64,000 nt of DNA from Bacillota bacterium (lineage in GTDB: Bacteria; Bacillota; DTU025), in assembly GCA_050951805.1 (NCBI GenBank), contig JBMNJT010000002.1, positions 544,001 to 608,000 on the forward strand, read 5' to 3'. This document shows, in pieces, positions 945 to 39,818 of the stretch (the stretch's first letter is position 1; each line of letters begins with the position of its first letter). The position numbers and the translations under genes were made by a program. The notes under the pieces are model-generated. The model was given only the letters and a program-made list of their open reading frames with translations, searched no databases and was not told where the DNA came from.

Positions 945-2486
945 TTGAAGCAGTTTTCCAATGAACCATTGATGGACTTCTCGATTGTGGAAAATCGAGA
1001 CAGGATGGCTGATGCCCTGGCGACTGTGGAAGAGGAATTCGGACACTATTATCCCCTTATAATCGCAGGTCAACGCGTGGAAACCGAAGAAAGAGTCGCG
1101 TCGGTCAATCCTTGCGCACACGAGCAGGTAGTGGGCTATGTCGCCCAAGCTGACCGGGCCCAGGCCGAAATGGCTATGGAGGAGGCTTGGAAGGCTTTCG
1201 AGACCTGGCGTGAGGTTCCCGCTGAAGGACGCGCTGCTACAGTCCTGAGGCTGTCTGCGCTGATGCGCAAGCGCAAAGCGGAACTCGCTGCCTGGCTCGT
1301 TTTCGAAGTGGGCAAGAATTGGGTGGAGGCGGATGCAGATGTAGCTGAGGCCATCGATTTCTGCGAGTACTACGCTCGGGAGATGATACGGTATGAAGGC
1401 CTCAATCAAGTGTATCCACACCCCAACGAGCAGAATGTGCAGCGTTATATCCCCCTCGGAGTAGGGGTGGTGATCAGCCCGTGGAATTTCCCGTTGGCGA
1501 TCCTCACTGGGATGACGACTGCCGCGGTAGTGGCCGGAAACACTGTGATCATAAAGCCCGCAAATACTGCTGGTGTGATAGCGGCCAAGTTGATGGAGCT
1601 CGTGGATGAGGCAGGTTTTCCTCCAGGCGTCATCAACTACCTGCCCAGCAGCGGCAAAACCATAGGTGACTACCTAGTCCAGCATCCTAAGACAAGGTTT
1701 ATCAACTTTACCGGATCGAAAGATGTGGGCCTTCACATTAACGAAGTGGCCGCCAAACATCAGCCAGGTCAGATATGGATCAAGCGCGTAGTGGCAGAGA
1801 TGGGCGGTAAGGACTTCATCATCGTGGATGAGACGGCTGATTTGGACAAAGCGGCTATGGGGATAGTCAAGTCGGCCTTCGGATACCAAGGGCAAAAGTG
1901 TTCTGCTTGTTCAAGAGCGATAATCGTGGACTCGGTTTACGACGAAGTTCTCGAGAAGACGAGAGAGATGGCTGCCGAATTGAGAGTGGGGGAAGCTGCA
2001 GCAAACTTCGCCGTTAATGCGGTTATCGATGAGAAAGCTTTCAGGAGCATTTCCAACTATATCGATATTGGCCGTGAAGAAGGAAGAATTGTGCTGGGCG
2101 GCGATCGTGATTCCAGTGTCGGGTATTACATAGAGCCCACCATCATAGAGGGTGTGTCTCCCCATGCACGCGTGGCCCAGGAGGAGATTTTCGGGCCTGT
2201 GCTCGCATTTATCCGGGCGGACAGCTATGACCATGCGGTGGAGATCGCCAATTGCACGGAATATGGGCTCACGGGTTCCGTCTACAGCAGGAATAGGGCG
2301 CGATTGGAGTCTGCCAAGGACAAGGTTCATGTGGGAAATCTATATCTTAACAGGCATTGCACCGGGGCATTGGTTGGGCTCCATCCGTTTGGCGGTTTCA
2401 ACCTGAGCGGGACCGACAGCAAGGCGGGGGGCCCCGACTACTTGCTCCTTTTCATGCAGGCTAAAGCGATTTCAGAGGCTATGTAA
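945..2486 (+). CDS. pruA: L-glutamate gamma-semialdehyde (P5C) dehydrogenase
   Basis: ALDH motifs SPWNFP, FTGS, AEMGGKD, GQKCSACSR, EEIFGPV, PFGGFNLSGTDSKAGGPDYL; TTG start with RBS AGGAAAGGGG. Confidence 0.93.
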   Translation: MKQFSNEPLMDFSIVENRDRMADALATVEEEFGHYYPLIIAGQRVETEERVASVNPCAHEQVVGYVAQADRAQAEMAMEEAWKAFETWREVPAEGRAATVLRLSALMRKRKAELAAWLVFEVGKNWVEADADVAEAIDFCEYYAREMIRYEGLNQVYPHPNEQNVQRYIPLGVGVVISPWNFPLAILTGMTTAAVVAGNTVIIKPANTAGVIAAKLMELVDEAGFPPGVINYLPSSGKTIGDYLVQHPKTRFINFTGSKDVGLHINEVAAKHQPGQIWIKRVVAEMGGKDFIIVDETADLDKAAMGIVKSAFGYQGQKCSACSRAIIVDSVYDEVLEKTREMAAELRVGEAAANFAVNAVIDEKAFRSISNYIDIGREEGRIVLGGDRDSSVGYYIEPTIIEGVSPHARVAQEEIFGPVLAFIRADSYDHAVEIANCTEYGLTGSVYSRNRARLESAKDKVHVGNLYLNRHCTGALVGLHPFGGFNLSGTDSKAGGPDYLLLFMQAKAISEAM

Positions 2487-4260: not shown

Positions 4261-5040
4261 ATGATCAATGCACTCGGGCTTACCAAGAGGTTCGGCGACA
4301 CGCTTGCCGTTGACAGCCTTGATCTTCATGTAGGCGCAGGCGAGATATTCGGCTTTCTCGGTCCCAATGGAGCCGGTAAGACCACTTCTATCAATATGAT
4401 GATAGGGATTCTCACTCCTACCGCGGGTCGCGTCGAGCTCGCAGGGATAGATGTGGCAAAGGATCCTCTCAAGGCCAAGGCGATTATTGGTTACGTGCCA
4501 GACCAGCCCAATATCTACGAGAAACTTACAGCCTGGGAGTTCTTGATGTTCGTGGCCAATCTCCACGAAGTTGAGAGAGGACGGGCCGAAAAAAAGGCTA
4601 GGAACCTTTTGAAGATGTTTGATCTTCTGGATCGGGCTGATGAGCAACTGGGTGGATACTCGCATGGGATGAAGCAAAAGGTCGTCATAGCCAGCGCGCT
4701 CTTGCATGAGCCTAAGATACTGTTTATGGACGAACCTACTGTAGGACTTGATCCAGGGAGCGCTAGGCTGGTAAAGGATATCCTCCGCGAGCTTGCTTCG
4801 GAGGGCGTCACGGTTTTCATGAGCACACATGTACTAGAGATCGCAGAGCGGATGTGCGATCGGGTGGGTATTATTCAAAAGGGGAGATTGCTGGCTGTGG
4901 GCAACATGGACGATCTACGTGAGGTCGCGGCGGCCAAAGGCGCCATGAAGCATCCGGAGGCTTCCACGTTGGAAGACCTTTTCATAGAACTAACTGGCGG
5001 TTCCGATTATGCAGAAGTCTCCAGATACTTGGAGGGCTAG
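4261..5040 (+). CDS. ABC transporter ATP-binding protein (exporter type)
   Basis: Walker A GPNGAGKTT, signature YSHGMKQK, Walker B LFMDEPT; start moved to ATG 4261 behind RBS AGGAGGG. Confidence 0.92.
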   Translation: MINALGLTKRFGDTLAVDSLDLHVGAGEIFGFLGPNGAGKTTSINMMIGILTPTAGRVELAGIDVAKDPLKAKAIIGYVPDQPNIYEKLTAWEFLMFVANLHEVERGRAEKKARNLLKMFDLLDRADEQLGGYSHGMKQKVVIASALLHEPKILFMDEPTVGLDPGSARLVKDILRELASEGVTVFMSTHVLEIAERMCDRVGIIQKGRLLAVGNMDDLREVAAAKGAMKHPEASTLEDLFIELTGGSDYAEVSRYLEG

Positions 5041-32429: not shown

Positions 32430-33110
32430 ATAGCCTTCGATCAGCACTCCAGTTTCAAACTAGCAAGATCCAGCTTTGCGGTAACGCGAGTTTCAATATG
32501 GTGCAGGCGATAGACAGGGGGCACCTGGAAAGGCGGACGCATTTTCCGACGTGATCTGCGCCACTACTTCAGACTGAAAAAGGTCGCCCGCTCAAGTAAG
32601 GTGAGGCAGCAATCTTGTTCGAGCGGGCGCGTTCTACTGCGTGGACCTTCCAATCCAGAGCTCATCACATCAATGACGGCCACGTGTTAAGATGGCTGCG
32701 GCTACCTATGCTGATGCAATCTGCGCCAGACTGTTTTACGGTCCACATGCAGAAAGACGAAGCTGCTAGGCTGGGCCACAACATGACCATCCTGGGGTAT
32801 CTGCCTCAGACTTCGGGTGCGCCACCTCTTATTGACCACGAGACATCCATTGTTGCCTTGGAATCTGGTGTAGGCATGGCGATCAGTTCGGTTGAGCGCG
32901 ACACCAATTAGGAAAATTCATTTGTGGCCCGACAATGGCATTGTTGCTTAGAAGAAGCTCTGTGAAGGCCTATGGCGCAGGGCATTTCATTGAAGGGCTT
33001 TTGCAGGGTGCGTGTTTTTCTATCCATGAAGGCAGAAGTGAATCGATGCAGAGGCAAGAAGCGTTGCGATTGTAGGGACGTGTGGTTACGCCGTCGAATA
33101 GTCAATGAGA

Positions 33111-33224
33111 TTGCTTGTCCGAGCCCACAGGCCTTGGGCTCAGGCCTGAAACGGAGCTGCGGCATGTGGGCCGATAGGGCGTATCTGGAAACGGGTGTGC
33201 TTCCCGATTTGGAAAGGAGAGCAA
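33111..33224 (+). ncRNA. Moco RNA motif riboswitch candidate (P3-less, tungsten-cofactor-associated type)
   Basis: TCCGAGC..GCCTTGGG..CTGCGGC..TAGGGCGTATCTG-GAAA-CGGGTGTGCTTCCCGATTTGGAAAGGAG matches the Moco RNA layout (cf. E. coli moaA leader ...CAGGG..GAAA..GCCTCCCGTATCTGGAAAGG). Confidence 0.85.
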
Positions 33225-33237
33225 ACACCGGATTCTC

Positions 33238-33274
33238 GGGCCGGGGTCTGCCACCTTTCTGTGGCGCCCGGCCC
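33238..33274 (+). promoter_or_regulatory. Hairpin downstream of the aptamer (putative expression platform)
   Basis: GGGCCGGG..GCCAC-CTTTCT-GTGGC..CCCGGCCC; CCTTTC is complementary to aptamer GAAAGG. Confidence 0.5.
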
Positions 33275-33373
33275 ATTCTGTCATAAACTATCGACATTTG
33301 CCTGCTGCAGTTCCAGGAGACTTTTGGGGCATTGCAAGGCCGCTACAGAACGGCTGTAAGCGGAGGTGGGAAG

Positions 33374-34681
33374 GTGGAGGAATACAAAGGACGGCAAGGT
33401 GAGCGCAGAGAATATGGGAGCCGTAGGGAGAGACAGATCGCACTCATCGTATTCGCCGCCATCTGCATTATAGCTATGGCATTCATTTTCTTGTGGCCTC
33501 GGTTTGGTAGCCGAAGCTATGTCTTTGCCGTCGTCGGTGACAACCAGGGGCGGAACGAAGTCTGGAATGTCGTGATGGACGGGGTAAACTCCGACCGTCC
33601 TGATTTTGTGCTTCATTGTGGCGACATGGTTGCATCGGGCACAAGGGCTCAATACGGTGATTTCTTGCTCGGTGCGGAGAAGCTCAAAATGCCTTTTTAC
33701 GTTGTGCCTGGAAATCACGATGTTCGCGGAGAAGGACGAGAGTGCTTTGCTCAGCTCGTCAACGATCCGCCGTACTACTCGTTCGAACATGAAGGGTACA
33801 GGTTCATAGGCTTAGATGCCTCCGAGGGGAGCATCGACATGGAGCAGACGGAGTGGCTCAGGAACGAGCTGTCCAAGGATGGCCACAAATTCGTCTTCAT
33901 GCATGTGCCGCTGTATGACCCTCGTCCTGGAGGAGATCACTGCTTCCTCGATTCCGAGCAGGCGTTCGAGCTGGAGAAGCTGTTCAGAGAGAGCGGTGTT
34001 TTGGCCGTGTTCAGTGGGCATGTCCACATGTTCAGCCATGAAGAGCGCGATGGGGTCCAGTATGTGACAACAGGCGGCGCGGGAGCTCTCTTATACGCCC
34101 CGGAAGAAGAGGGCGGATTCTACCACTATGTCTTGGTCAAGGTTGACGGTGACCAGGTGGACATAGAAGCCAAGAAAGTGGAAGTGGAGTTTGAAGAGCC
34201 TTCTTTGACGTTGGTAGGCCCCGCTGGGGAGATCGAGTTGAGCCTCGGCGAGCTGGCGCTGATGGAAACCTTGGAGGTTGAGGCCGCTTTCGAGAACAAA
34301 TTCGAGAACCTTGGTGGGAAGGGCCTTTACGTGGGGGTTCCTGTAAGCCGTCTCGTCGAAATGGTCGGGGGGATGGTTCCAGGACAGACCCTCGTGGTGA
34401 CATGTGCTGATGGATATGCTCAGGATTATGCATACGAGAATCTCTACCCTTCTGAGCTGTGGGCAGAGATACAGGGCCCGATGATTTTGGCTTACGAAAA
34501 GGACGGCGCCACTTCGCCAAAGTGGCCGGAGTCTCCGAGGCTTGTTATGGCGTCTCCGGACGGGGTATATAGCAATGAGGACTGTGCAGACACATCCATG
34601 CCCGGGCAGGGGTGGAATGTGTATGAGTCTGCCGGCGCCAGATGGGCGCGGAGTGTAAGACGTGTTGAGGTCAAGGATTAG
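33374..34681 (+). CDS. Membrane-anchored calcineurin-like metallophosphoesterase fused to a molybdopterin-binding (sulfite-oxidase-fold)-like domain
   Basis: TM helix; GDNQG, HCGD, PGNHD, MHVP, SGHVH; C-terminal YVGVPV..LV..VGG..CADGY..MILAYEKDG..PRLV..WARSVRRVEV. Confidence 0.85.
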   Translation: MEEYKGRQGERREYGSRRERQIALIVFAAICIIAMAFIFLWPRFGSRSYVFAVVGDNQGRNEVWNVVMDGVNSDRPDFVLHCGDMVASGTRAQYGDFLLGAEKLKMPFYVVPGNHDVRGEGRECFAQLVNDPPYYSFEHEGYRFIGLDASEGSIDMEQTEWLRNELSKDGHKFVFMHVPLYDPRPGGDHCFLDSEQAFELEKLFRESGVLAVFSGHVHMFSHEERDGVQYVTTGGAGALLYAPEEEGGFYHYVLVKVDGDQVDIEAKKVEVEFEEPSLTLVGPAGEIELSLGELALMETLEVEAAFENKFENLGGKGLYVGVPVSRLVEMVGGMVPGQTLVVTCADGYAQDYAYENLYPSELWAEIQGPMILAYEKDGATSPKWPESPRLVMASPDGVYSNEDCADTSMPGQGWNVYESAGARWARSVRRVEVKD

Positions 34682-34727
34682 CCTTCGTTTGCGTGTGTTG
34701 GTAACCGAAAATGGAGGAGGTTATTGT

Positions 34728-35723
34728 ATGAGGAAGAACCGTCTAGCGTTGGTCGTGTTTCTCGCTTTTGTGGTCGGGTTTATGGCGATGCCCGTGTTCT
34801 GGATGCCTGCACAGGCCCAGAACAACTGGAAGGTCGAAGTAGTATCGGGACAGAGAAGCGTCACTTTGACAGAGACCGATTTTGGCAGGATGAAACCTGT
34901 GTCGGCTAAAGCTGCTTTCCTTAGAACTACAGGGCGAATAGAGGGGCCTGCGCTTTACAAAGGCGTACCGATGGAAGAAATACTCAAGAAGGTTGGAGGC
35001 ATCGATCAAGGCCAAGCCATTCGCGTCACATCTCGTGACGGGTACGCGATGACTTACAGCTATGCTCAGGTTTGCGGAGGAATTCTCACATATGACAATC
35101 AGCAGAGGGCTTTGCGCATCGGCGGAGTTGCCATGTATTTGGCCTATGAGTCGGATCGGGACTCCGCTGACAAACTCCCGAGAATAGTCTTTATGGACAA
35201 GGAGAAAACCGCGATCACTGACGGACATTTCTGGGCGAAATCGGTGGCCAAGATAGAAGTCGTTCCCGGGGTGGACGATTGGATGATTAAGCTTAATGGA
35301 ATAGAGAAGACGTATTTTGACCGAGCCACTTTCGAGAGCACCGTCAATTGTCCTAGCACTCCTCATCCGGGCGTCAAGTGGGAAACAACTGAAAAAGACG
35401 GTAGCAATTCGACGTACGAGGGACTTCCGCTCTGGATCTGGGTGGCCATGATGGACGGAGGGGACTTGCCTGCCGGGCATTACCGCTTCAATGATTCTCT
35501 TGCACGCAAGGGTTACAGAGTTGTAGTGGTTTCAGCGGACGGTTTCTCTGCAGAACTCGATTCGGGCCTGATGGCGAGAAACGATCGAATAATACTCGCC
35601 TACAAGAAAAACGGTCAGTATCTGTCGAAGAACGATGGCCCGCTGCGGCTTGTCGGAGAAGATCTGCCTTCGAAGAAACACCAAGTGAAGCAGGTAGTTG
35701 AAATCAGGTTAGAGGGCATATAG
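34728..35723 (+). CDS. Secreted protein with two tandem molybdopterin-binding-like domains
   Basis: Signal peptide ending AQA; YKGVPM..SRDGY..LAYE..WAKSVAKIEV and YEGLPL..SADGF..IILAYKKNGQYL..DGPLRLV..VKQVVEIRL. Confidence 0.8.
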   Translation: MRKNRLALVVFLAFVVGFMAMPVFWMPAQAQNNWKVEVVSGQRSVTLTETDFGRMKPVSAKAAFLRTTGRIEGPALYKGVPMEEILKKVGGIDQGQAIRVTSRDGYAMTYSYAQVCGGILTYDNQQRALRIGGVAMYLAYESDRDSADKLPRIVFMDKEKTAITDGHFWAKSVAKIEVVPGVDDWMIKLNGIEKTYFDRATFESTVNCPSTPHPGVKWETTEKDGSNSTYEGLPLWIWVAMMDGGDLPAGHYRFNDSLARKGYRVVVVSADGFSAELDSGLMARNDRIILAYKKNGQYLSKNDGPLRLVGEDLPSKKHQVKQVVEIRLEGI

Positions 35724-35796
35724 CGCAGAGTACTTTGTTGATCTGCAATATTGGTAACCGTTCGGCAGGGCAGTATTGTGTGGAGGGCTGGCATGG

Positions 35797-36852
35797 ATGA
35801 ATCCAGGACGAATGCGGAAAGCCTACTATTTCAGTACGCGAGATCTCGTCCTTATTGCGGCTATTAGCGCCGCTGGGGGCGTCCTCAGCACTTACGTTGG
35901 TTATCTGGGAAACCTCATGAACAAGGCTTTTGGCGTGCCCTTTGGTGCCGGTCAATGGATGGCAGGACTCCATGTATTCTGGTTCGTGTTTGCCAGGGCG
36001 ATTGTGGGGCGAACGGGAGCGGCATCCCTTACTGGGATCCTTAAAGGGATAGTCGAGATGTTTGCCGGCAGCACCCACGGATTTCCAATTGTAATTGTGT
36101 CAGCTGTTGAGGGAATTCTTGTCGATGTCGTGTTGTTGCCTTCGGGAAGTAACCCTTCCCTTGGGGCAATGTGCCTCGCTGGCGGGATTTCGTCTGCTTC
36201 CAACGTGCTCATATTCCAGGCCCTGTACTTTTCGGGGGTATCAATGGGCTATATGGGGCTGATAACCGCTTTTGCCTTCGCATCGGGGGCAGCGTTCGGG
36301 GGATATTTCACTGCAGGCGTGCTTGATGCTGTATCATCCGCCCACATACTTAAGGTCGATGAAGAGCGAAGGAGCGTCCATCGACCGCCAGTTGTCCGCA
36401 TGGGCGTTGCCATTGCGCTAGTGCTGGTTTTGGCCGGCGGAGCAGTGTACTACTATGCATGCGTCTTCGAACCTTTCTGGAATGGGCCTACATGCCGTGT
36501 CGAGGGCACGGTGGCTCAAGCTTACAATTACAGACCTATTGATTTTGAAGATGACAATGTCACGGTCGTCGCTGAGCTCAAGGGTGCAGTCACCCACGTA
36601 CCTCCCACGGATTACACAGGAGTTCCCTTGGCTGCGATTCTTGAACGCGCAGGCGTGGGCGAGTCGGCCACAGAGATTCAGGTTGTTGCTTCTGATGGGT
36701 ATTACGCCGTGTTCGACCTCGATGATGTTATGCGCCGTCAAGATGTTATTTTGGCGCAGGATGACGAAACGCTCAGGTTGATTGCCACAGGGTACGAGGG
36801 GGCCTATTGGGTCAGGATGGTATCCAGGATCGTGGTGTGCGAGGATGATTGA
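35797..36852 (+). CDS. ECF transporter S component fused to a C-terminal molybdopterin-binding-like domain
   Basis: FSTRDLVLIAAISAAGGV S-component start with about 6 TMs, an extra TM, then YTGVPLAAILERAG..VASDGY..VILA..LRLIA..YWVRMVSRIVV. Confidence 0.82.
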   Translation: MNPGRMRKAYYFSTRDLVLIAAISAAGGVLSTYVGYLGNLMNKAFGVPFGAGQWMAGLHVFWFVFARAIVGRTGAASLTGILKGIVEMFAGSTHGFPIVIVSAVEGILVDVVLLPSGSNPSLGAMCLAGGISSASNVLIFQALYFSGVSMGYMGLITAFAFASGAAFGGYFTAGVLDAVSSAHILKVDEERRSVHRPPVVRMGVAIALVLVLAGGAVYYYACVFEPFWNGPTCRVEGTVAQAYNYRPIDFEDDNVTVVAELKGAVTHVPPTDYTGVPLAAILERAGVGESATEIQVVASDGYYAVFDLDDVMRRQDVILAQDDETLRLIATGYEGAYWVRMVSRIVVCEDD

Positions 36853-38320
36853 CATTTCCGGCCTTAGAGTGCGGTATTATGGCTCCTCCGAACTCGCTCT
36901 AAGAGATATTGACCTCATAGTTGAACCTGGCGAGAGCGTCATTGTGACTGGCCCTAGCGGCTGTGGCAAGTCTACATTGGCGCTCTGCTTGGCAGGATTT
37001 GTTCCTCATGCCATTGGAGCTGAAGTAGCAGGCAGCATAAGGGTTTGCGGCATTAATCAGCGAGAAGCCAGCGTTTACCGGATTGCACAGCATGTGGGCC
37101 TTGTGCAGCAAGACCCTGAAGGGCAGTTCTGCACCATGTGCGTGGAGGATGAGGTTGCATTTGGGCCTGAGAATCTCCGTTGCTCGCCTTATGAGGTCGA
37201 AAGCCGCCTTGACAGGGCGTTGGCAACGACAGGAGTATCTCATCTTCGGGGGCGCAAGTTGACTGAGCTTTCTGGAGGAGAGAAGCAGAAAGTTGCCCTC
37301 GCTGCAGTGCTGGCCATGGAACCTGATCTCGTGATTTTGGATGAACCTACAGCCTATCTTGATCCGCGTGCCACCCGTGAGCTTATCGAGCTTGTGTCGA
37401 GGATGCGGGATGCGGATAGTAGGTTGACACTCTTGATACTGGAACATAAACCATGGCGTTTTGGCCATGCACTGGAACGGGTGATCCATCTTGACAGGGG
37501 TTCTCTCATGTACGATGGGCCTATCGGCGGTGCCGCTTTCGAAGAGGAGATCCTGGATCAGCTTCCACACAGCCACAGATCGCTTCACGGCTTTGGCGAG
37601 CCTTTGCTCAGAGTGCAGAACCTCTGGCAAGCCTATGGCGAGAGAACTGTGCTTCGCGATGTAGATTTGGAGGTTTGCAGAGGTGAGATTGTGGGACTGA
37701 TGGGCGACAATGGAAGCGGCAAGACGACTTTGCTCCATACAATTATGGGATTCTTACGGCCCTCGTCAGGCAGAGTACTGCTTGAAGGGGATGATATCAC
37801 CAACAAGCCGGTATCAGCCCGGGCCAGAAAAATCGGAATGATATTTCAGAATCCAAACCACCAGCTGTTTACGGACCGTGTGTGGAGGGAGGTGGTCATA
37901 GGTCCCTTATGTCAAGGTGACACTGAAGAAGAGTGCCGTCCTCGCGCAGATGCGCTCCTTGACTCATTCGGACTCTCTAGTTACCGCGATTCCCATCCGC
38001 TACTACTGAGCTACGGCCAGAAGCGCCGACTCAACCTCGCGTCAACCATGGCATCCAACCCAAGTCTCCTGTTGCTCGATGAACCCTTTGCCGGGCAGGA
38101 TGTATCGCGAGCCCGCGATCTCATGTGCATTCTGGATGAGCTTGCTTCAGAGGGTGTTGGAGTTTTGATCATAGGCCATGATCCCGATATCATGACCAGG
38201 TGTTGCGACAGGATCCTTTTCATGCGTGATGGAGAGATTCAGATAGACGCTCCTTCTTACGAGGCTGTAGCTGAGCTTGAAAGGAGGGGCGAACATGATT
38301 ACCTTCCCGGCAGATTCTGA
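36845..38320 (+). CDS. ECF transporter ATPase, fused A-A'
   Basis: Two NBDs: GPSGCGKST/QDPEGQ/LSGGEKQK and GDNGSGKTT/FQNPNHQ/LSYGQKRR. Confidence 0.92.
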   Translation: MIDISGLRVRYYGSSELALRDIDLIVEPGESVIVTGPSGCGKSTLALCLAGFVPHAIGAEVAGSIRVCGINQREASVYRIAQHVGLVQQDPEGQFCTMCVEDEVAFGPENLRCSPYEVESRLDRALATTGVSHLRGRKLTELSGGEKQKVALAAVLAMEPDLVILDEPTAYLDPRATRELIELVSRMRDADSRLTLLILEHKPWRFGHALERVIHLDRGSLMYDGPIGGAAFEEEILDQLPHSHRSLHGFGEPLLRVQNLWQAYGERTVLRDVDLEVCRGEIVGLMGDNGSGKTTLLHTIMGFLRPSSGRVLLEGDDITNKPVSARARKIGMIFQNPNHQLFTDRVWREVVIGPLCQGDTEEECRPRADALLDSFGLSSYRDSHPLLLSYGQKRRLNLASTMASNPSLLLLDEPFAGQDVSRARDLMCILDELASEGVGVLIIGHDPDIMTRCCDRILFMRDGEIQIDAPSYEAVAELERRGEHDYLPGRF

Positions 38321-39026
38321 CGGCTCAACTGCTGTCAGCAAACTGAACCCCATCACTAAACTGATCGTATTAGTATCGGCTTGTACAGTAGCTTTGCGGC
38401 TTAAGGAGCCTTTGCATGCCCTGATTTGTTTTGGCCTTATTCTCATTGGGCATCTTCTCACTAAGGTGAGACCGGCCATCTTGTGGCAGCGGACGAGAGG
38501 CATATTCATGTTTGGCATCATCCTTTTCGCTAGCCAGATCGCTTTGGTATGTGATGTGCCTTGGCAAACTCGGATTGCCAACGGAGCTTTGATGTCTTTG
38601 CGCTTTCTCAATGTGGTCCTGGCAAGCCATCTCTTTGTAAGTGTCACTAGCTCGGAGGATTTTGCCTACGCTCTCATGCAGGCCGGTCTCCCATACAGAT
38701 ACGGATTCGCCCTCCTTGCCACAATGCGTTTCGTTCCATACTTCAAAACGCAGGCAAATACGGTACTTCAGGCGCAGATGGCGCGGGGGATGGAAGTGGA
38801 TCGCCCCACGCCGAAAGGGATATTCCTCATGGCCAAGCACACCTTCGTTCCAGTCATTGTGACTGCCCTGAGCAAGGTTGATTCCCTCGCCATATCTATG
38901 GAAGGCAGATGTTTTGGCCTTTACTCTGACCGAACTTACCGTCGGAGAATCCCTTTTCACTGGTTGGATGGGGTTGTTATATGTGCAAGCATTGCAGGCA
39001 TAGTTGCGTCTTTCTATCTTATCTGA
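38295..39026 (+). CDS. ECF transporter T component
   Basis: LNPITKL, RFVP, AQMARG, AISMEGRCF (the two X-R-X coupling motifs). Confidence 0.92.
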   Translation: MITFPADSDGSTAVSKLNPITKLIVLVSACTVALRLKEPLHALICFGLILIGHLLTKVRPAILWQRTRGIFMFGIILFASQIALVCDVPWQTRIANGALMSLRFLNVVLASHLFVSVTSSEDFAYALMQAGLPYRYGFALLATMRFVPYFKTQANTVLQAQMARGMEVDRPTPKGIFLMAKHTFVPVIVTALSKVDSLAISMEGRCFGLYSDRTYRRRIPFHWLDGVVICASIAGIVASFYLI

Positions 39027-39131: not shown

Positions 39132-39818
39132 ATGAAATATGAATTGATTCTGTTTGATGCTGATGGAACGCTATTCGATTACGACAAGGCGGAACGGTAT
39201 GCACTTGAGCAAACTTGTCGCCAACATGGACTAGGATACGATCAACCTTTGCTGGAACGATACAGGGCTATCAATTCGTCGCTCTGGAGGCAGCTTGAGG
39301 AGGGCATGATCACTTCCTCAAAGATCAGGGTGGAGAGGTTCAGGAGGCTTCTTTCTGAAATCGGATCAGATGCAGAGTGTGACTGGGAGCAATTCGCCCA
39401 GCATTACCTCTTGCATCTCGCCGGGGGTGCCTGGCTCATAGACGGGGCAGAGGAGATCTGCCGCTACCTTGCTCCCTATTACAAGCTGGCTATATTGACC
39501 AATGGAATCAAGGAAGTCCAGATATCGAGGTTTCAGGCTTCTTCGCTCACACCATACATCGACAAGCTCATCATCTCGGAGGAGGTGGGGTACAGCAAAC
39601 CCCGTCCCGAGATCTTTGAATATGCAATGAAGACCCTGGGACAGGAGTGTCGAAGCACAACGATGATAGTCGGCGATTCGCTCACTTCGGACATGCGTGG
39701 GGGCAAGGACTTTGGCATCGCAACATGCTGGTACAATCCACATGGCATTGAAAATGGCACGGGCTTAGAGGTTGACTACGAGATACGCCGGCTGGATCAA
39801 TTGAAGGACATCTTGTGA
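39132..39818 (+). CDS. YjjG-family HAD nucleotidase
   Basis: FDADGTLFD, LTNG, ISEEVGYSKP, VGDSLTSD. Confidence 0.88.
   Translation: MKYELILFDADGTLFDYDKAERYALEQTCRQHGLGYDQPLLERYRAINSSLWRQLEEGMITSSKIRVERFRRLLSEIGSDAECDWEQFAQHYLLHLAGGAWLIDGAEEICRYLAPYYKLAILTNGIKEVQISRFQASSLTPYIDKLIISEEVGYSKPRPEIFEYAMKTLGQECRSTTMIVGDSLTSDMRGGKDFGIATCWYNPHGIENGTGLEVDYEIRRLDQLKDIL

Follow-up and report, generated by a model that had tools for sequence, protein, structure and literature searches.

How does a bacterium that retains a tungsten enzyme come by the cofactor when the genes for making it are absent? This question is raised by an operon in a 64,000-nt stretch of DNA (the window: positions 544,001 to 608,000 of the forward strand of contig JBMNJT010000002.1, assembly GCA_050951805.1) from an uncultured, anaerobic Bacillota bacterium of the DTU025 lineage. 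Behind an RNA of the riboswitch family of the molybdenum cofactor (Moco) and its tungsten form (Tuco), five genes encode an anchored phosphoesterase, a secreted protein and a complete energy-coupling factor (ECF) importer, and four small domains spread over three of these proteins are predicted to adopt the sulfite oxidase (SUOX) fold, with the pterin binder PruR among their closest relatives of solved structure. To our knowledge, both forms of the cofactor are commonly held to be too labile for exchange, and every prokaryote with molybdenum or tungsten enzymes is assumed to be self-sufficient. We propose, with a probability of roughly 0.6, that this system serves the salvage uptake of a molybdopterin-type cofactor or a dephosphorylated form of it; the cofactor concerned is most likely the tungsten cofactor of aldehyde ferredoxin oxidoreductase (AOR). 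An earlier note on this DNA, made from the sequence alone, had interpreted the operon as a cofactor scavenging and import system, and this interpretation is supported by the analyses below, in which we infer the transported molecule.

The host assembly (2.75 Mb in 8 contigs, 97% complete) is labelled G000; other G-numbers denote the genomes compared and L-numbers the loci, while A1 stands for the S-component fusion and A2 for the two-domain protein.

A riboswitch-led ECF operon with outward-facing domains

The leader and the five genes of the operon are as follows.

33104..33235, + strand: Moco/Tuco riboswitch aptamer, P3-less variant (RF01055, 55.4 bits against a gathering score of 36, E 1.5e-10)
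33238..33274, + strand: GC-rich hairpin, AUUCUGUC, candidate terminator or expression platform with a weak U tract (RNAfold, -29.9 kcal/mol)
33332..34681, + strand: membrane-anchored calcineurin-like/purple-acid-type metallophosphoesterase with a C-terminal PruR-like domain (PF00149, 65.4 bits, residues 65-233)
34728..35723, + strand: secreted protein of two PruR-like (truncated SUOX-fold) domains (PF00174, 32 bits, domain 2)
35776..36852, + strand: YkoE-like ECF S component with a seventh transmembrane (TM) helix and an outward-facing PruR-like domain (PF09819, 59.8 bits; PF00174, 33.6 bits)
36782..38320, + strand: fused EcfA-EcfA' ATPase with two ABC_tran domains (TIGR04520, 325.5 bits; TIGR04521, 320.3 bits)
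38277..39026, + strand: EcfT transmembrane coupling component (PF02361 CbiQ, 58.8 bits; TIGR02454, 36.3 bits, below cut-off)

The leader had been taken for a Moco RNA, and its RF01055 score of 55.4 bits against the required 36 bears this out. In the cmscan alignment the aptamer covers model positions 1-135 with the positions of the P3 stem deleted, which places it in the Tuco-type subclass under the scheme given in the available part of PMC2408646, where P3-less Moco RNAs were tied to tungsten-cofactor metabolism (Regulski et al. 2008). The adjoining hairpin reached a z score of -3.65 against 200 shuffles (RNAfold) and may act as terminator or expression platform; a simple terminator scan detected none 3' of the window aptamer.

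All five genes share one orientation downstream of the RNA, and the open reading frames (ORFs) of the last three overlap. Pfam and TIGR family matches, together with hhalign comparisons, confirm the parts and the co-oriented layout proposed earlier. The phosphoesterase probably starts at GTG 33374, preceded by GGAGG; it possesses all five metal-ligand blocks (GDNQG69, GDMVA97, GNHD127, VFMH188, GHVH229) and a single N-terminal TM anchor (residues 36-54), resembles cyclic-nucleotide phosphodiesterases weakly and far below the cut-offs, and its C-terminal domain matches the profile of the two-domain family with an hhalign probability of 98.7% (E 3e-16). In the secreted two-domain protein, domain 1 is homologous to the other domain copies and the N terminus is signal-peptide-like. 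No twin-arginine motif is present in its sequence, which implies that the protein is not exported in a folded, cofactor-loaded state. Three-domain forms occur among its 173 homologues.

The S component, probably starting at ATG 35797, carries an additional TM helix at residues 206-224 ahead of its C-terminal domain, which matches the two-domain profile with a probability of 95.9% (hhalign, E 5e-9). The A1 profile as a whole matches YkoE 5EDL, an S component for hydroxymethylpyrimidine (HMP)/thiamine, with an E value of 6.2e-15, and SoxC with 1.1e-5. This fused architecture is found in at least 436 proteins from Bacillota, Methanomassiliicoccales and other archaea, which bear generic names only ('ECF transporter S component', 'thiamin/HMP permease', 'sulfite oxidase'). 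The probable start of the EcfAA' gene, ATG 36845, overlaps the stop codon of the S gene, and with S, A, A' and T components all encoded by consecutive genes with overlapping ORFs the operon specifies a dedicated (group I) ECF set. Since the phosphoesterase is anchored, the secreted protein has a signal-like N terminus and the S component an extra TM helix, all four domain copies should face outward. Profile, fold and topology evidence thereby agree with the earlier count of four extracytoplasmic SUOX-fold copies. A complex prediction for the S-fusion domain with the two-domain protein (score 0.02, mark 0.32) speaks neither for nor against binding.

One further gene follows on the same strand, 106 nt 3' of EcfT, and is perhaps co-transcribed:

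39132..39818, + strand: HAD-family hydrolase (PF13419, 73.4 bits)

We rejected it as a member of the system, its position downstream of EcfT being kept only in the close relatives L008 and L009.

The repeated domains resemble the pterin binder PruR

The four copies of the SUOX-like domain measure about 120-160 aa each. PF00174 is matched in part (model positions 33-160 and 67-163 of 169), and neither a dimerisation nor a redox domain lies alongside. AlphaFold models of the S fusion and the two-domain protein, built on family alignments, reached pLDDT values of 87.1 and 89.0, respectively, and were searched against the PDB with Foldseek. For the two-domain protein, the top matches were the PruR structures 7KOU, 7KOS, 7KOM, 7RKB and 7KP2 (E 4.5e-6 to 1.1e-4; TMt 0.67-0.73; root-mean-square deviation 2.6-4.0 A over about 160 columns), and sulfite dehydrogenases and YedY ranked under them; one of the matched PruR structures was solved with neopterin. 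The S-fusion model matched YkoE 5EDL (TMt 0.80), SorA and SoxC, and also PruR (TMt 0.58-0.60). A phmmer search of the two-domain protein against PDB sequences gave no match, and recognition of the kinship needed a family profile and a fold search.

According to the available text of PMC11194511, PruR has a truncated SUOX fold in which the molybdenum-ligand Cys is replaced and the pterin ring is held between a Tyr and a Trp, the stacking Tyr (Y104) belonging to an 'NDY' site. A profile alignment of marginal significance (E 0.017) places the 'NDY' of 7KOM on the invariant 'DGY' of the family described here; Asp stands there instead of Asn, the residue that in PruR contributes a hydrogen bond to the pterin. 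A Trp near the C terminus is conserved in three copies (W345 in A1, W170 in A2) and may be the counterpart of PruR W160. In an alignment of 36 S-fusion sequences, the outer domain has the invariant positions G244, V246, E267, G270, Y280, G282, D307-G308-Y309, G342 and W345-V346; the place of the SUOX Cys is taken by a nearly invariant Leu268 ('AELKG'), and no Cys is invariant.

The domains had been described as lacking the molybdenum-ligating Cys. This holds for three of the four copies (S fusion, domain 1 and phosphoesterase domain), which have no conserved Cys at the SUOX ligand position, and less clearly for domain 2 of the secreted protein, where Cys209 of A2 is invariant within an 'FES..C[PH]' loop and is accompanied by a conserved His-containing loop. 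By secondary structure, Cys209 appears to lie in the loop ahead of the hairpin and not at its tip. The models support the view that the repeated domains are SUOX-fold but probably non-enzymatic, with the PruR pterin binders as nearest solved structures. For the suggestion that an enzyme scaffold was repurposed for cofactor capture, PruR offers a precedent already in print (PMC11194511, available text).

Related modules also occur in larger proteins. Reading frames spanning 1,000 to about 2,400 residues (G161:C9, G405:C37 and G099:C1 among others) contain at least four tandem domain-2-like modules each and, judged by sequence, look like surface arrays of a pterin-binding fold. In the host itself, a 171-aa PruR-like protein (G000:C5, L005 164-1929, minus strand; PF00174 21.2 bits, below cut-off; hhalign 93.8%) adjoins a type I phosphodiesterase/nucleotide pyrophosphatase (PF01663, 104.7 bits), a second pairing of this fold with a phosphoesterase in the same genome.

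The host keeps a cofactor user and lacks the pathway

The host genome contains one full-length AOR, adjoining an iron alcohol dehydrogenase, and exactly two Moco RNAs. Family searches of this genome returned no MoaC, MoaA C-terminal domain, MoeA_N or MoaE and no enzyme of the DMSO-reductase or xanthine-dehydrogenase type. Likewise, tblastn of the host with TupA, TupB, two MoeA proteins, MoaC and a MOSC-MoaB protein of G002 gave no match, and the G002 MoaA query gave a weak radical-SAM match only. Two sets of candidates were discarded: the sole PF00994 protein, considered as MoeA/MogA, is CinA, and the PF13531 matches, considered as ModA, are PhnS/PotD-like. The only Moco-pathway gene found in the genome belongs to a pair on contig 3 (G000:C3:122380-123711; L091 4689-6395), in which MobB (PF03205, 91 bits) is followed by an APH/RIO-like kinase-fold gene; the pair is isolated between chemotaxis-receptor and CheX/flagellar genes, whereas in other lineages homologous pairs adjoin the ECF operon. 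The host therefore has a cofactor user, sensors and a handling protein, yet no route to the pterin, to metal insertion or to TupAB-type tungstate import.

This pattern extends to its relatives. MoaA, MoaC and MoeA were found in none of the three genomes of the host genus (1-3 AOR matches each) and in none of the seven genomes of the sister family f4 (2-8 AOR matches each). AOR itself occurs in all 21 genomes of the host-class set, with 1-13 matches each. Genus g5 of the host family possesses both the biosynthesis pathway and the ECF operon, and relatives with the ECF operon also have tupABC under a separate P3-containing RNA. An apparent lack of MoaC in G007 and G008 was dismissed as an assembly gap; both have MoeA, and G007 has MoaA as well.

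One riboswitch and binding-protein set serves two importer classes

We followed the operon through the host-class set and through an even sample of 401 genomes from the phylum. The S fusion is present in 11 of the 21 host-class genomes, and 10 of these 11 have RF01055 at a distance of 2.3-3.5 kb upstream, on the strand and contig of the fusion. In the phylum sample 24 genomes carry the fusion, and among the 18 carriers outside the host class nine have RF01055 0.2-4.7 kb upstream on the operon strand. No TPP (thiamine pyrophosphate) or cobalamin riboswitch was seen on the operon strand in any of the loci scanned, i.e. the window and 20 related loci; a single TPP riboswitch, on the opposite strand, is found in L067. 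Homologous operons thus stand behind Moco RNAs, as the earlier note had expected, and control by TPP, which the YkoE-like S component might suggest, was ruled out for the scanned loci.

The operons take several forms. In type A, to which the operon in the window belongs, the order of RNA, phosphoesterase fusion, two-domain protein, S fusion, AA' and T is conserved. Type B combines a multi-repeat protein of 1,100-1,200 residues with a purple-acid-type phosphatase (PF00149 + PF16656), mostly with no RNA in the sequence covered. The loci of G210, G124, G198 and G028 (4/4) are unfused, with PruR-like proteins of 150-364 aa and a separate S component of 185-217 aa. In all three long unfused loci EcfA, EcfA' and EcfT are followed by a MobB gene, the G124 locus ending after the S gene, and in G198 two more genes are present, for an APH-like kinase and for a nucleotide pyrophosphatase of type I. 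Among the fused operons, two have MobB as a neighbour and six have APH-like genes. The phosphoesterases that recur are of three kinds with no homology to one another: calcineurin-like, purple-acid-type and type I pyrophosphatase. The partners of the PruR-like domains are transporter genes, and no GGDEF, EAL or kinase sensor partner was present in any locus read. Judged by their source names, homologues from cultured organisms include the two-domain protein of Gelria sp. Kuro-4 and the S fusion of Thermovorax subterraneus.

The sister family f4 has no S fusion. In all seven of its genomes a clear homologue of the two-domain protein (hhalign E 1.6e-68, Cys loop included) comes after a P3-less Moco RNA, and the three long loci continue with a one-domain copy (E 4e-26), then a C-N hydrolase, and then a binding protein of the NMT1/SsuA type with permease and ATPase. 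One riboswitch and binding-protein set therefore serves two unrelated importer classes, both with relatives that carry pyrimidine-type vitamin precursors. Nothing else indicates as strongly as this exchange of the transporter that the system is defined by its binding proteins and its RNA and that it serves uptake. The C-N hydrolase of f4 (L049, L050 and L051) has 587 aa, is encoded between the PruR-like genes and the NMT1/SsuA-type importer, and is reminiscent of pyrimidine-salvage amidohydrolases.

Moco RNAs with and without P3 are divided by operon type

Two further features of the window concern the second Moco RNA of the host:

683-826, + strand: second Moco RNA, P3 stem present (RF01055, 62.3 bits)
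945-2486, + strand: L-glutamate gamma-semialdehyde (P5C) dehydrogenase behind the second Moco RNA (TIGR01237, 748 bits)

P3 is missing from all 15 uptake-type Moco RNAs aligned, namely that of the operon in the window, six further ECF-linked ones and eight more, and it is present in all ten other Moco RNAs of the host class displayed. Of these ten, seven precede tupA/tupB and moeA-moaA-moaC, and three precede a homologue of the 945-2486 gene. The division is maintained within single genomes, where P3-less RNAs stand before uptake operons only and P3-containing ones before tupAB-moeA-moaAC or the P5C dehydrogenase. If absence of P3 simply signified tungsten, a P3-containing aptamer would not be expected on an operon for tungstate uptake and biosynthesis; the two forms may differ in ligand or in set point, either of which would agree with the split.

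The pairing of a P3-containing Moco RNA with P5C dehydrogenase recurs in L021, L027 and L029, and in L028 the gene is fragmentary. That an NAD-dependent P5C dehydrogenase replaces the ferredoxin-dependent AOR when the cofactor is scarce is only a guess.

Other riboswitches were observed in the related loci. In L083 (G210:C6:3785-3906, minus strand) a P3-less Moco RNA lies immediately 5' of an AOR gene (AFOR_N, C6:3129-3728). L063 has a second P3-less Moco RNA (1279-1398, minus strand, 75.1 bits) just 3' of EcfT, and L065 an FMN (flavin mononucleotide) riboswitch (4681-4837, plus strand) about 1 kb 5' of the operon Moco RNA on the same strand. In L089 (G273:C115) an importer of the Peripla_BP_2/FecCD/ATPase kind and a DUF364-DUF4213 'heavy-metal chelation' protein are encoded behind a P3-less Moco RNA of weak score (38.2 bits); AOR is present and MoaC missing in this genome, and the importer may represent a further uptake route.

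Distribution in the phylum and points against salvage

In the 401-genome sample, with presence of the two-domain family called at E <= 1e-15, the family was found in 35 of the 244 AOR-positive genomes and in one of the 157 AOR-negative ones. Among the AOR genomes it was detected in 11 of 39 lacking MoaC, one of which (G007) is a false absence, versus 24 of 205 possessing MoaC.

Several observations weigh against salvage of the cofactor. The Fisher p values of the two comparisons (3e-7 and 0.012) overstate the case because related genomes are not independent. An overall enrichment of auxotrophs among carriers had to be rejected: the MoaC-negative share of the carriers (11/36) equals the background of all sampled genomes (123/401), and enrichment appears only when AOR genomes are considered. 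Furthermore, 18 of the 24 carriers of the S fusion possess MoaC. These carriers can make the cofactor, which implies that the system is not confined to auxotrophs; the expected association with genomes that have tungsten enzymes and lack moaA, moaC and moeA is accordingly borne out by the host and several lineages, but not by the majority of fused-form carriers. In favour of salvage, on the other hand, are the 28 AOR-positive, MoaC-negative genomes that the strict search missed. Twenty of them have RF01055, and 14 have a YkoE-like S component at the low threshold of E <= 1e-8, with the RNA less than 2.3 kb upstream on the same strand in 11 of the 14; the unfused loci of G210, G124, G198 and G028 described above come from this set. 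The low-threshold search was confined to MoaC-negative genomes and had no control group.

Also against salvage, nine of the 18 carriers outside the host class have no riboswitch in the sequence covered, which in two of them extends less than 2.1 kb upstream. G005, a member of the host family that is 84% complete, possesses AOR but lacks the biosynthesis genes, the RNA and the system alike. The APH-like gene of the host scores 22.5 bits, under the Pfam cut-off of 23.2, and is 25% identical to the operon-linked gene of G198. Finally, the authors of the PruR work regard the truncated pocket as probably too small for Moco (PMC11194511 and PMC13259868, in their available parts), and the domains described here are similarly short.

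A proposed salvage route and its alternatives

Salvage uptake would proceed as follows. The four extracellular PruR-like domains, one on the anchored phosphoesterase, two in the secreted protein and one on the S component, would bind the pterin, the surface metallophosphoesterase would take off a phosphate or nucleotide, and the YkoE-like S component with EcfAA'T would import the product. Inside the cell, the APH-like kinase might restore the phosphate and MobB might help to pass the cofactor to apo-AOR, and when the cofactor is plentiful the P3-less Moco RNA would switch the operon off. Removal of a phosphate outside and its return inside is the pattern of thiamine, riboflavin and nicotinamide riboside salvage. 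More tentatively, and with more doubt than we attach to salvage as such, we consider a farther-reaching scenario, in which the intact, metal-loaded tungsten cofactor would be traded among anaerobes: surface arrays of PruR-like domains, the phosphoesterase, ECF or NMT1-type import, the kinase and MobB would together load AOR, lineages including the host genus would be auxotrophs, and the P3-less riboswitch would be tuned to salvage.

The alternative that survives best, although we judge it unlikely, is the import of a smaller pterin (neopterin, monapterin, a folate-derived pterin or a breakdown product) that is sensed by the P3-less RNA itself or as a derivative. PruR is known to bind small pterins, in a pocket said to be too short to take Moco (PMC11194511, available part). 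The P3-less form has no measured ligand in the accessible part of PMC2408646, and the division of P3-less and P3-containing RNAs by operon type would fit two ligands, but in G210 a P3-less RNA stands directly 5' of an AOR gene, and RNA and system are kept in lineages that have lost the whole Moco pathway. The C-N hydrolase of f4 would be at home in the salvage of degraded pyrimidine or pterin bases; however, 35 of the 36 carriers have AOR, and the Moco-pathway protein MobB is encoded right after EcfT in all three long unfused loci and beside two fused ones.

Import of tungstate or molybdate, with the SUOX-like domains acting as oxyanion receptors in the manner of modABC and tupABC, appears improbable. 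Moco RNAs do often precede molybdate or tungstate importers (PMC2408646, available part; G002 and G013 in this study), and 18 of the 24 carriers, which also make the cofactor, would need the metal. An oxyanion would nevertheless be useless alone to the host, its genus and the sister family because they have no MoeA, MoaA and MoaC, and relatives with the ECF operon already possess tupABC under its own P3-containing RNA. Moreover, both the fold and its conserved Tyr are characteristic of pterin binding, organic heterocycles are what YkoE-type S components bind, and the recurrent phosphoesterase, kinase and MobB would be left without a role.

Uptake of an early precursor, cyclic pyranopterin monophosphate (cPMP), to be finished in the cell is very unlikely: cPMP is the most stable intermediate of the pathway and the phosphoesterase bears its weak, sub-cut-off likeness to cyclic-nucleotide phosphodiesterases, but the host could not convert cPMP because it lacks MoaE, MoeA and MoaB/MogA. 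Hardly more credible is the absence of any import, with the domains forming a pterin-sensing or extracytoplasmic redox module or being cofactor-bearing enzymes, for although PruR itself signals together with DcpA (PMC11194511, available part) and domain 2 has its invariant Cys and conserved His-containing loop, a complete ECF importer is translationally coupled to the domains, GGDEF, EAL and kinase sensor partners are missing from the loci read, no twin-arginine motif occurs in the secreted protein, and the domains have no deep cleft and, in three of four copies, no Cys ligand.

If salvage uptake of a molybdopterin-type cofactor is indeed what the operon provides, the cofactor joins the list of cross-fed vitamins, and genomes with AOR genes but no moa or moe genes are explained, which alters the reading of 'missing pathway' genomes in metabolic reconstructions of anaerobic communities. 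It would also give an assayable function to the widespread annotations 'molybdopterin-dependent oxidoreductase' and 'thiamine/HMP permease'. The host is a useful test case, as the whole pathway and the tungstate importer are lost while a single AOR, MobB and two riboswitches are kept. This genome adds a pathway-less host, the transporter exchange in its sister family, the P3 split within genomes, and phylum counts including those against a simple auxotroph rule.

Comparison with known systems

The known regulons of Moco riboswitches comprise moaABCDE, modABC, tupABC and genes of molybdenum or tungsten enzymes, and no cofactor importer is listed among them in the available part of PMC2408646. 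The operon described here is headed by the same RNA family, but unlike those regulons it encodes neither biosynthesis nor an oxyanion importer nor an enzyme. Ready-made, protein-bound Moco is obtained from the diet by Caenorhabditis elegans through an uptake route that is not known (PMC7849362); this case concerns an animal, and the available part of that paper describes no bacterial counterpart. A 2013 survey of riboswitch regulons has, in its accessible part, no Moco transporter in its coenzyme-uptake categories (PMC3766115), and a 2026 review of pterins states in the part available that their crossing of membranes is not known (PMC13259868). In agreement with the earlier note, the literature searched, which did not extend to supplements and the original ECF family survey, yielded no account of a bacterium importing Moco, Tuco or molybdopterin by a transporter of its own. 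The operon is therefore probably a bacterial uptake route for ready-made cofactor that has not been described so far.

With SUOX enzymes (SorA 2BLF, SoxC 2XTS, YedY/MsrP 1XDQ, sulfite oxidase) the domains share the core of the fold and the 'xGVP', 'DGY' and 'RLV' motifs. They differ in size, with 120-160 aa as against about 250 aa, and in having neither a twin-arginine signal nor a dimerisation or redox domain.

The transporter is most like YkoEDC(F), the thiamine/HMP importer of Bacillus subtilis, which likewise combines a PF09819 S component and dedicated A, A' and T components in one operon under riboswitch control. The riboswitch of ykoEDC responds to TPP, whereas that of the present operon is of the Moco/Tuco family, and a surface phosphoesterase, MobB and kinase companions are added here. 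ECF importers normally work without an extracytoplasmic binding protein, whereas the S component described here adds a TM helix and a binding domain.

In the Isd/NEAT haem relay of Gram-positive bacteria, repeated cofactor-binding domains on the surface feed a membrane importer. Fold, cofactor and transporter class of that relay are unrelated to those of the system described here, in which the domains may similarly hand their ligand from one to the next.

Closest to the binding domains is PruR of Agrobacterium, Vibrio and Klebsiella (7KOS, 7KOU, 7KOM, 7KP2, 7RKB), which according to the available part of PMC11194511 is likewise a small, exported, non-enzymatic and truncated SUOX fold that has lost the canonical Cys. 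At the position of this Cys, PruR has Pro-Trp and the S fusion Leu. PruR is known from Proteobacteria and is paired with a GGDEF-EAL (DcpA-type) or a TorS/BaeS-type partner, whereas the domains described here occur in Bacillota and archaea, are paired with a transporter and a phosphoesterase, extend to tandem arrays in ORFs of up to about 2,400 aa and stand behind a Moco RNA. The SUOX fold as a pterin binder is already known from PruR, and what differs here is its setting beside a riboswitch-linked importer.

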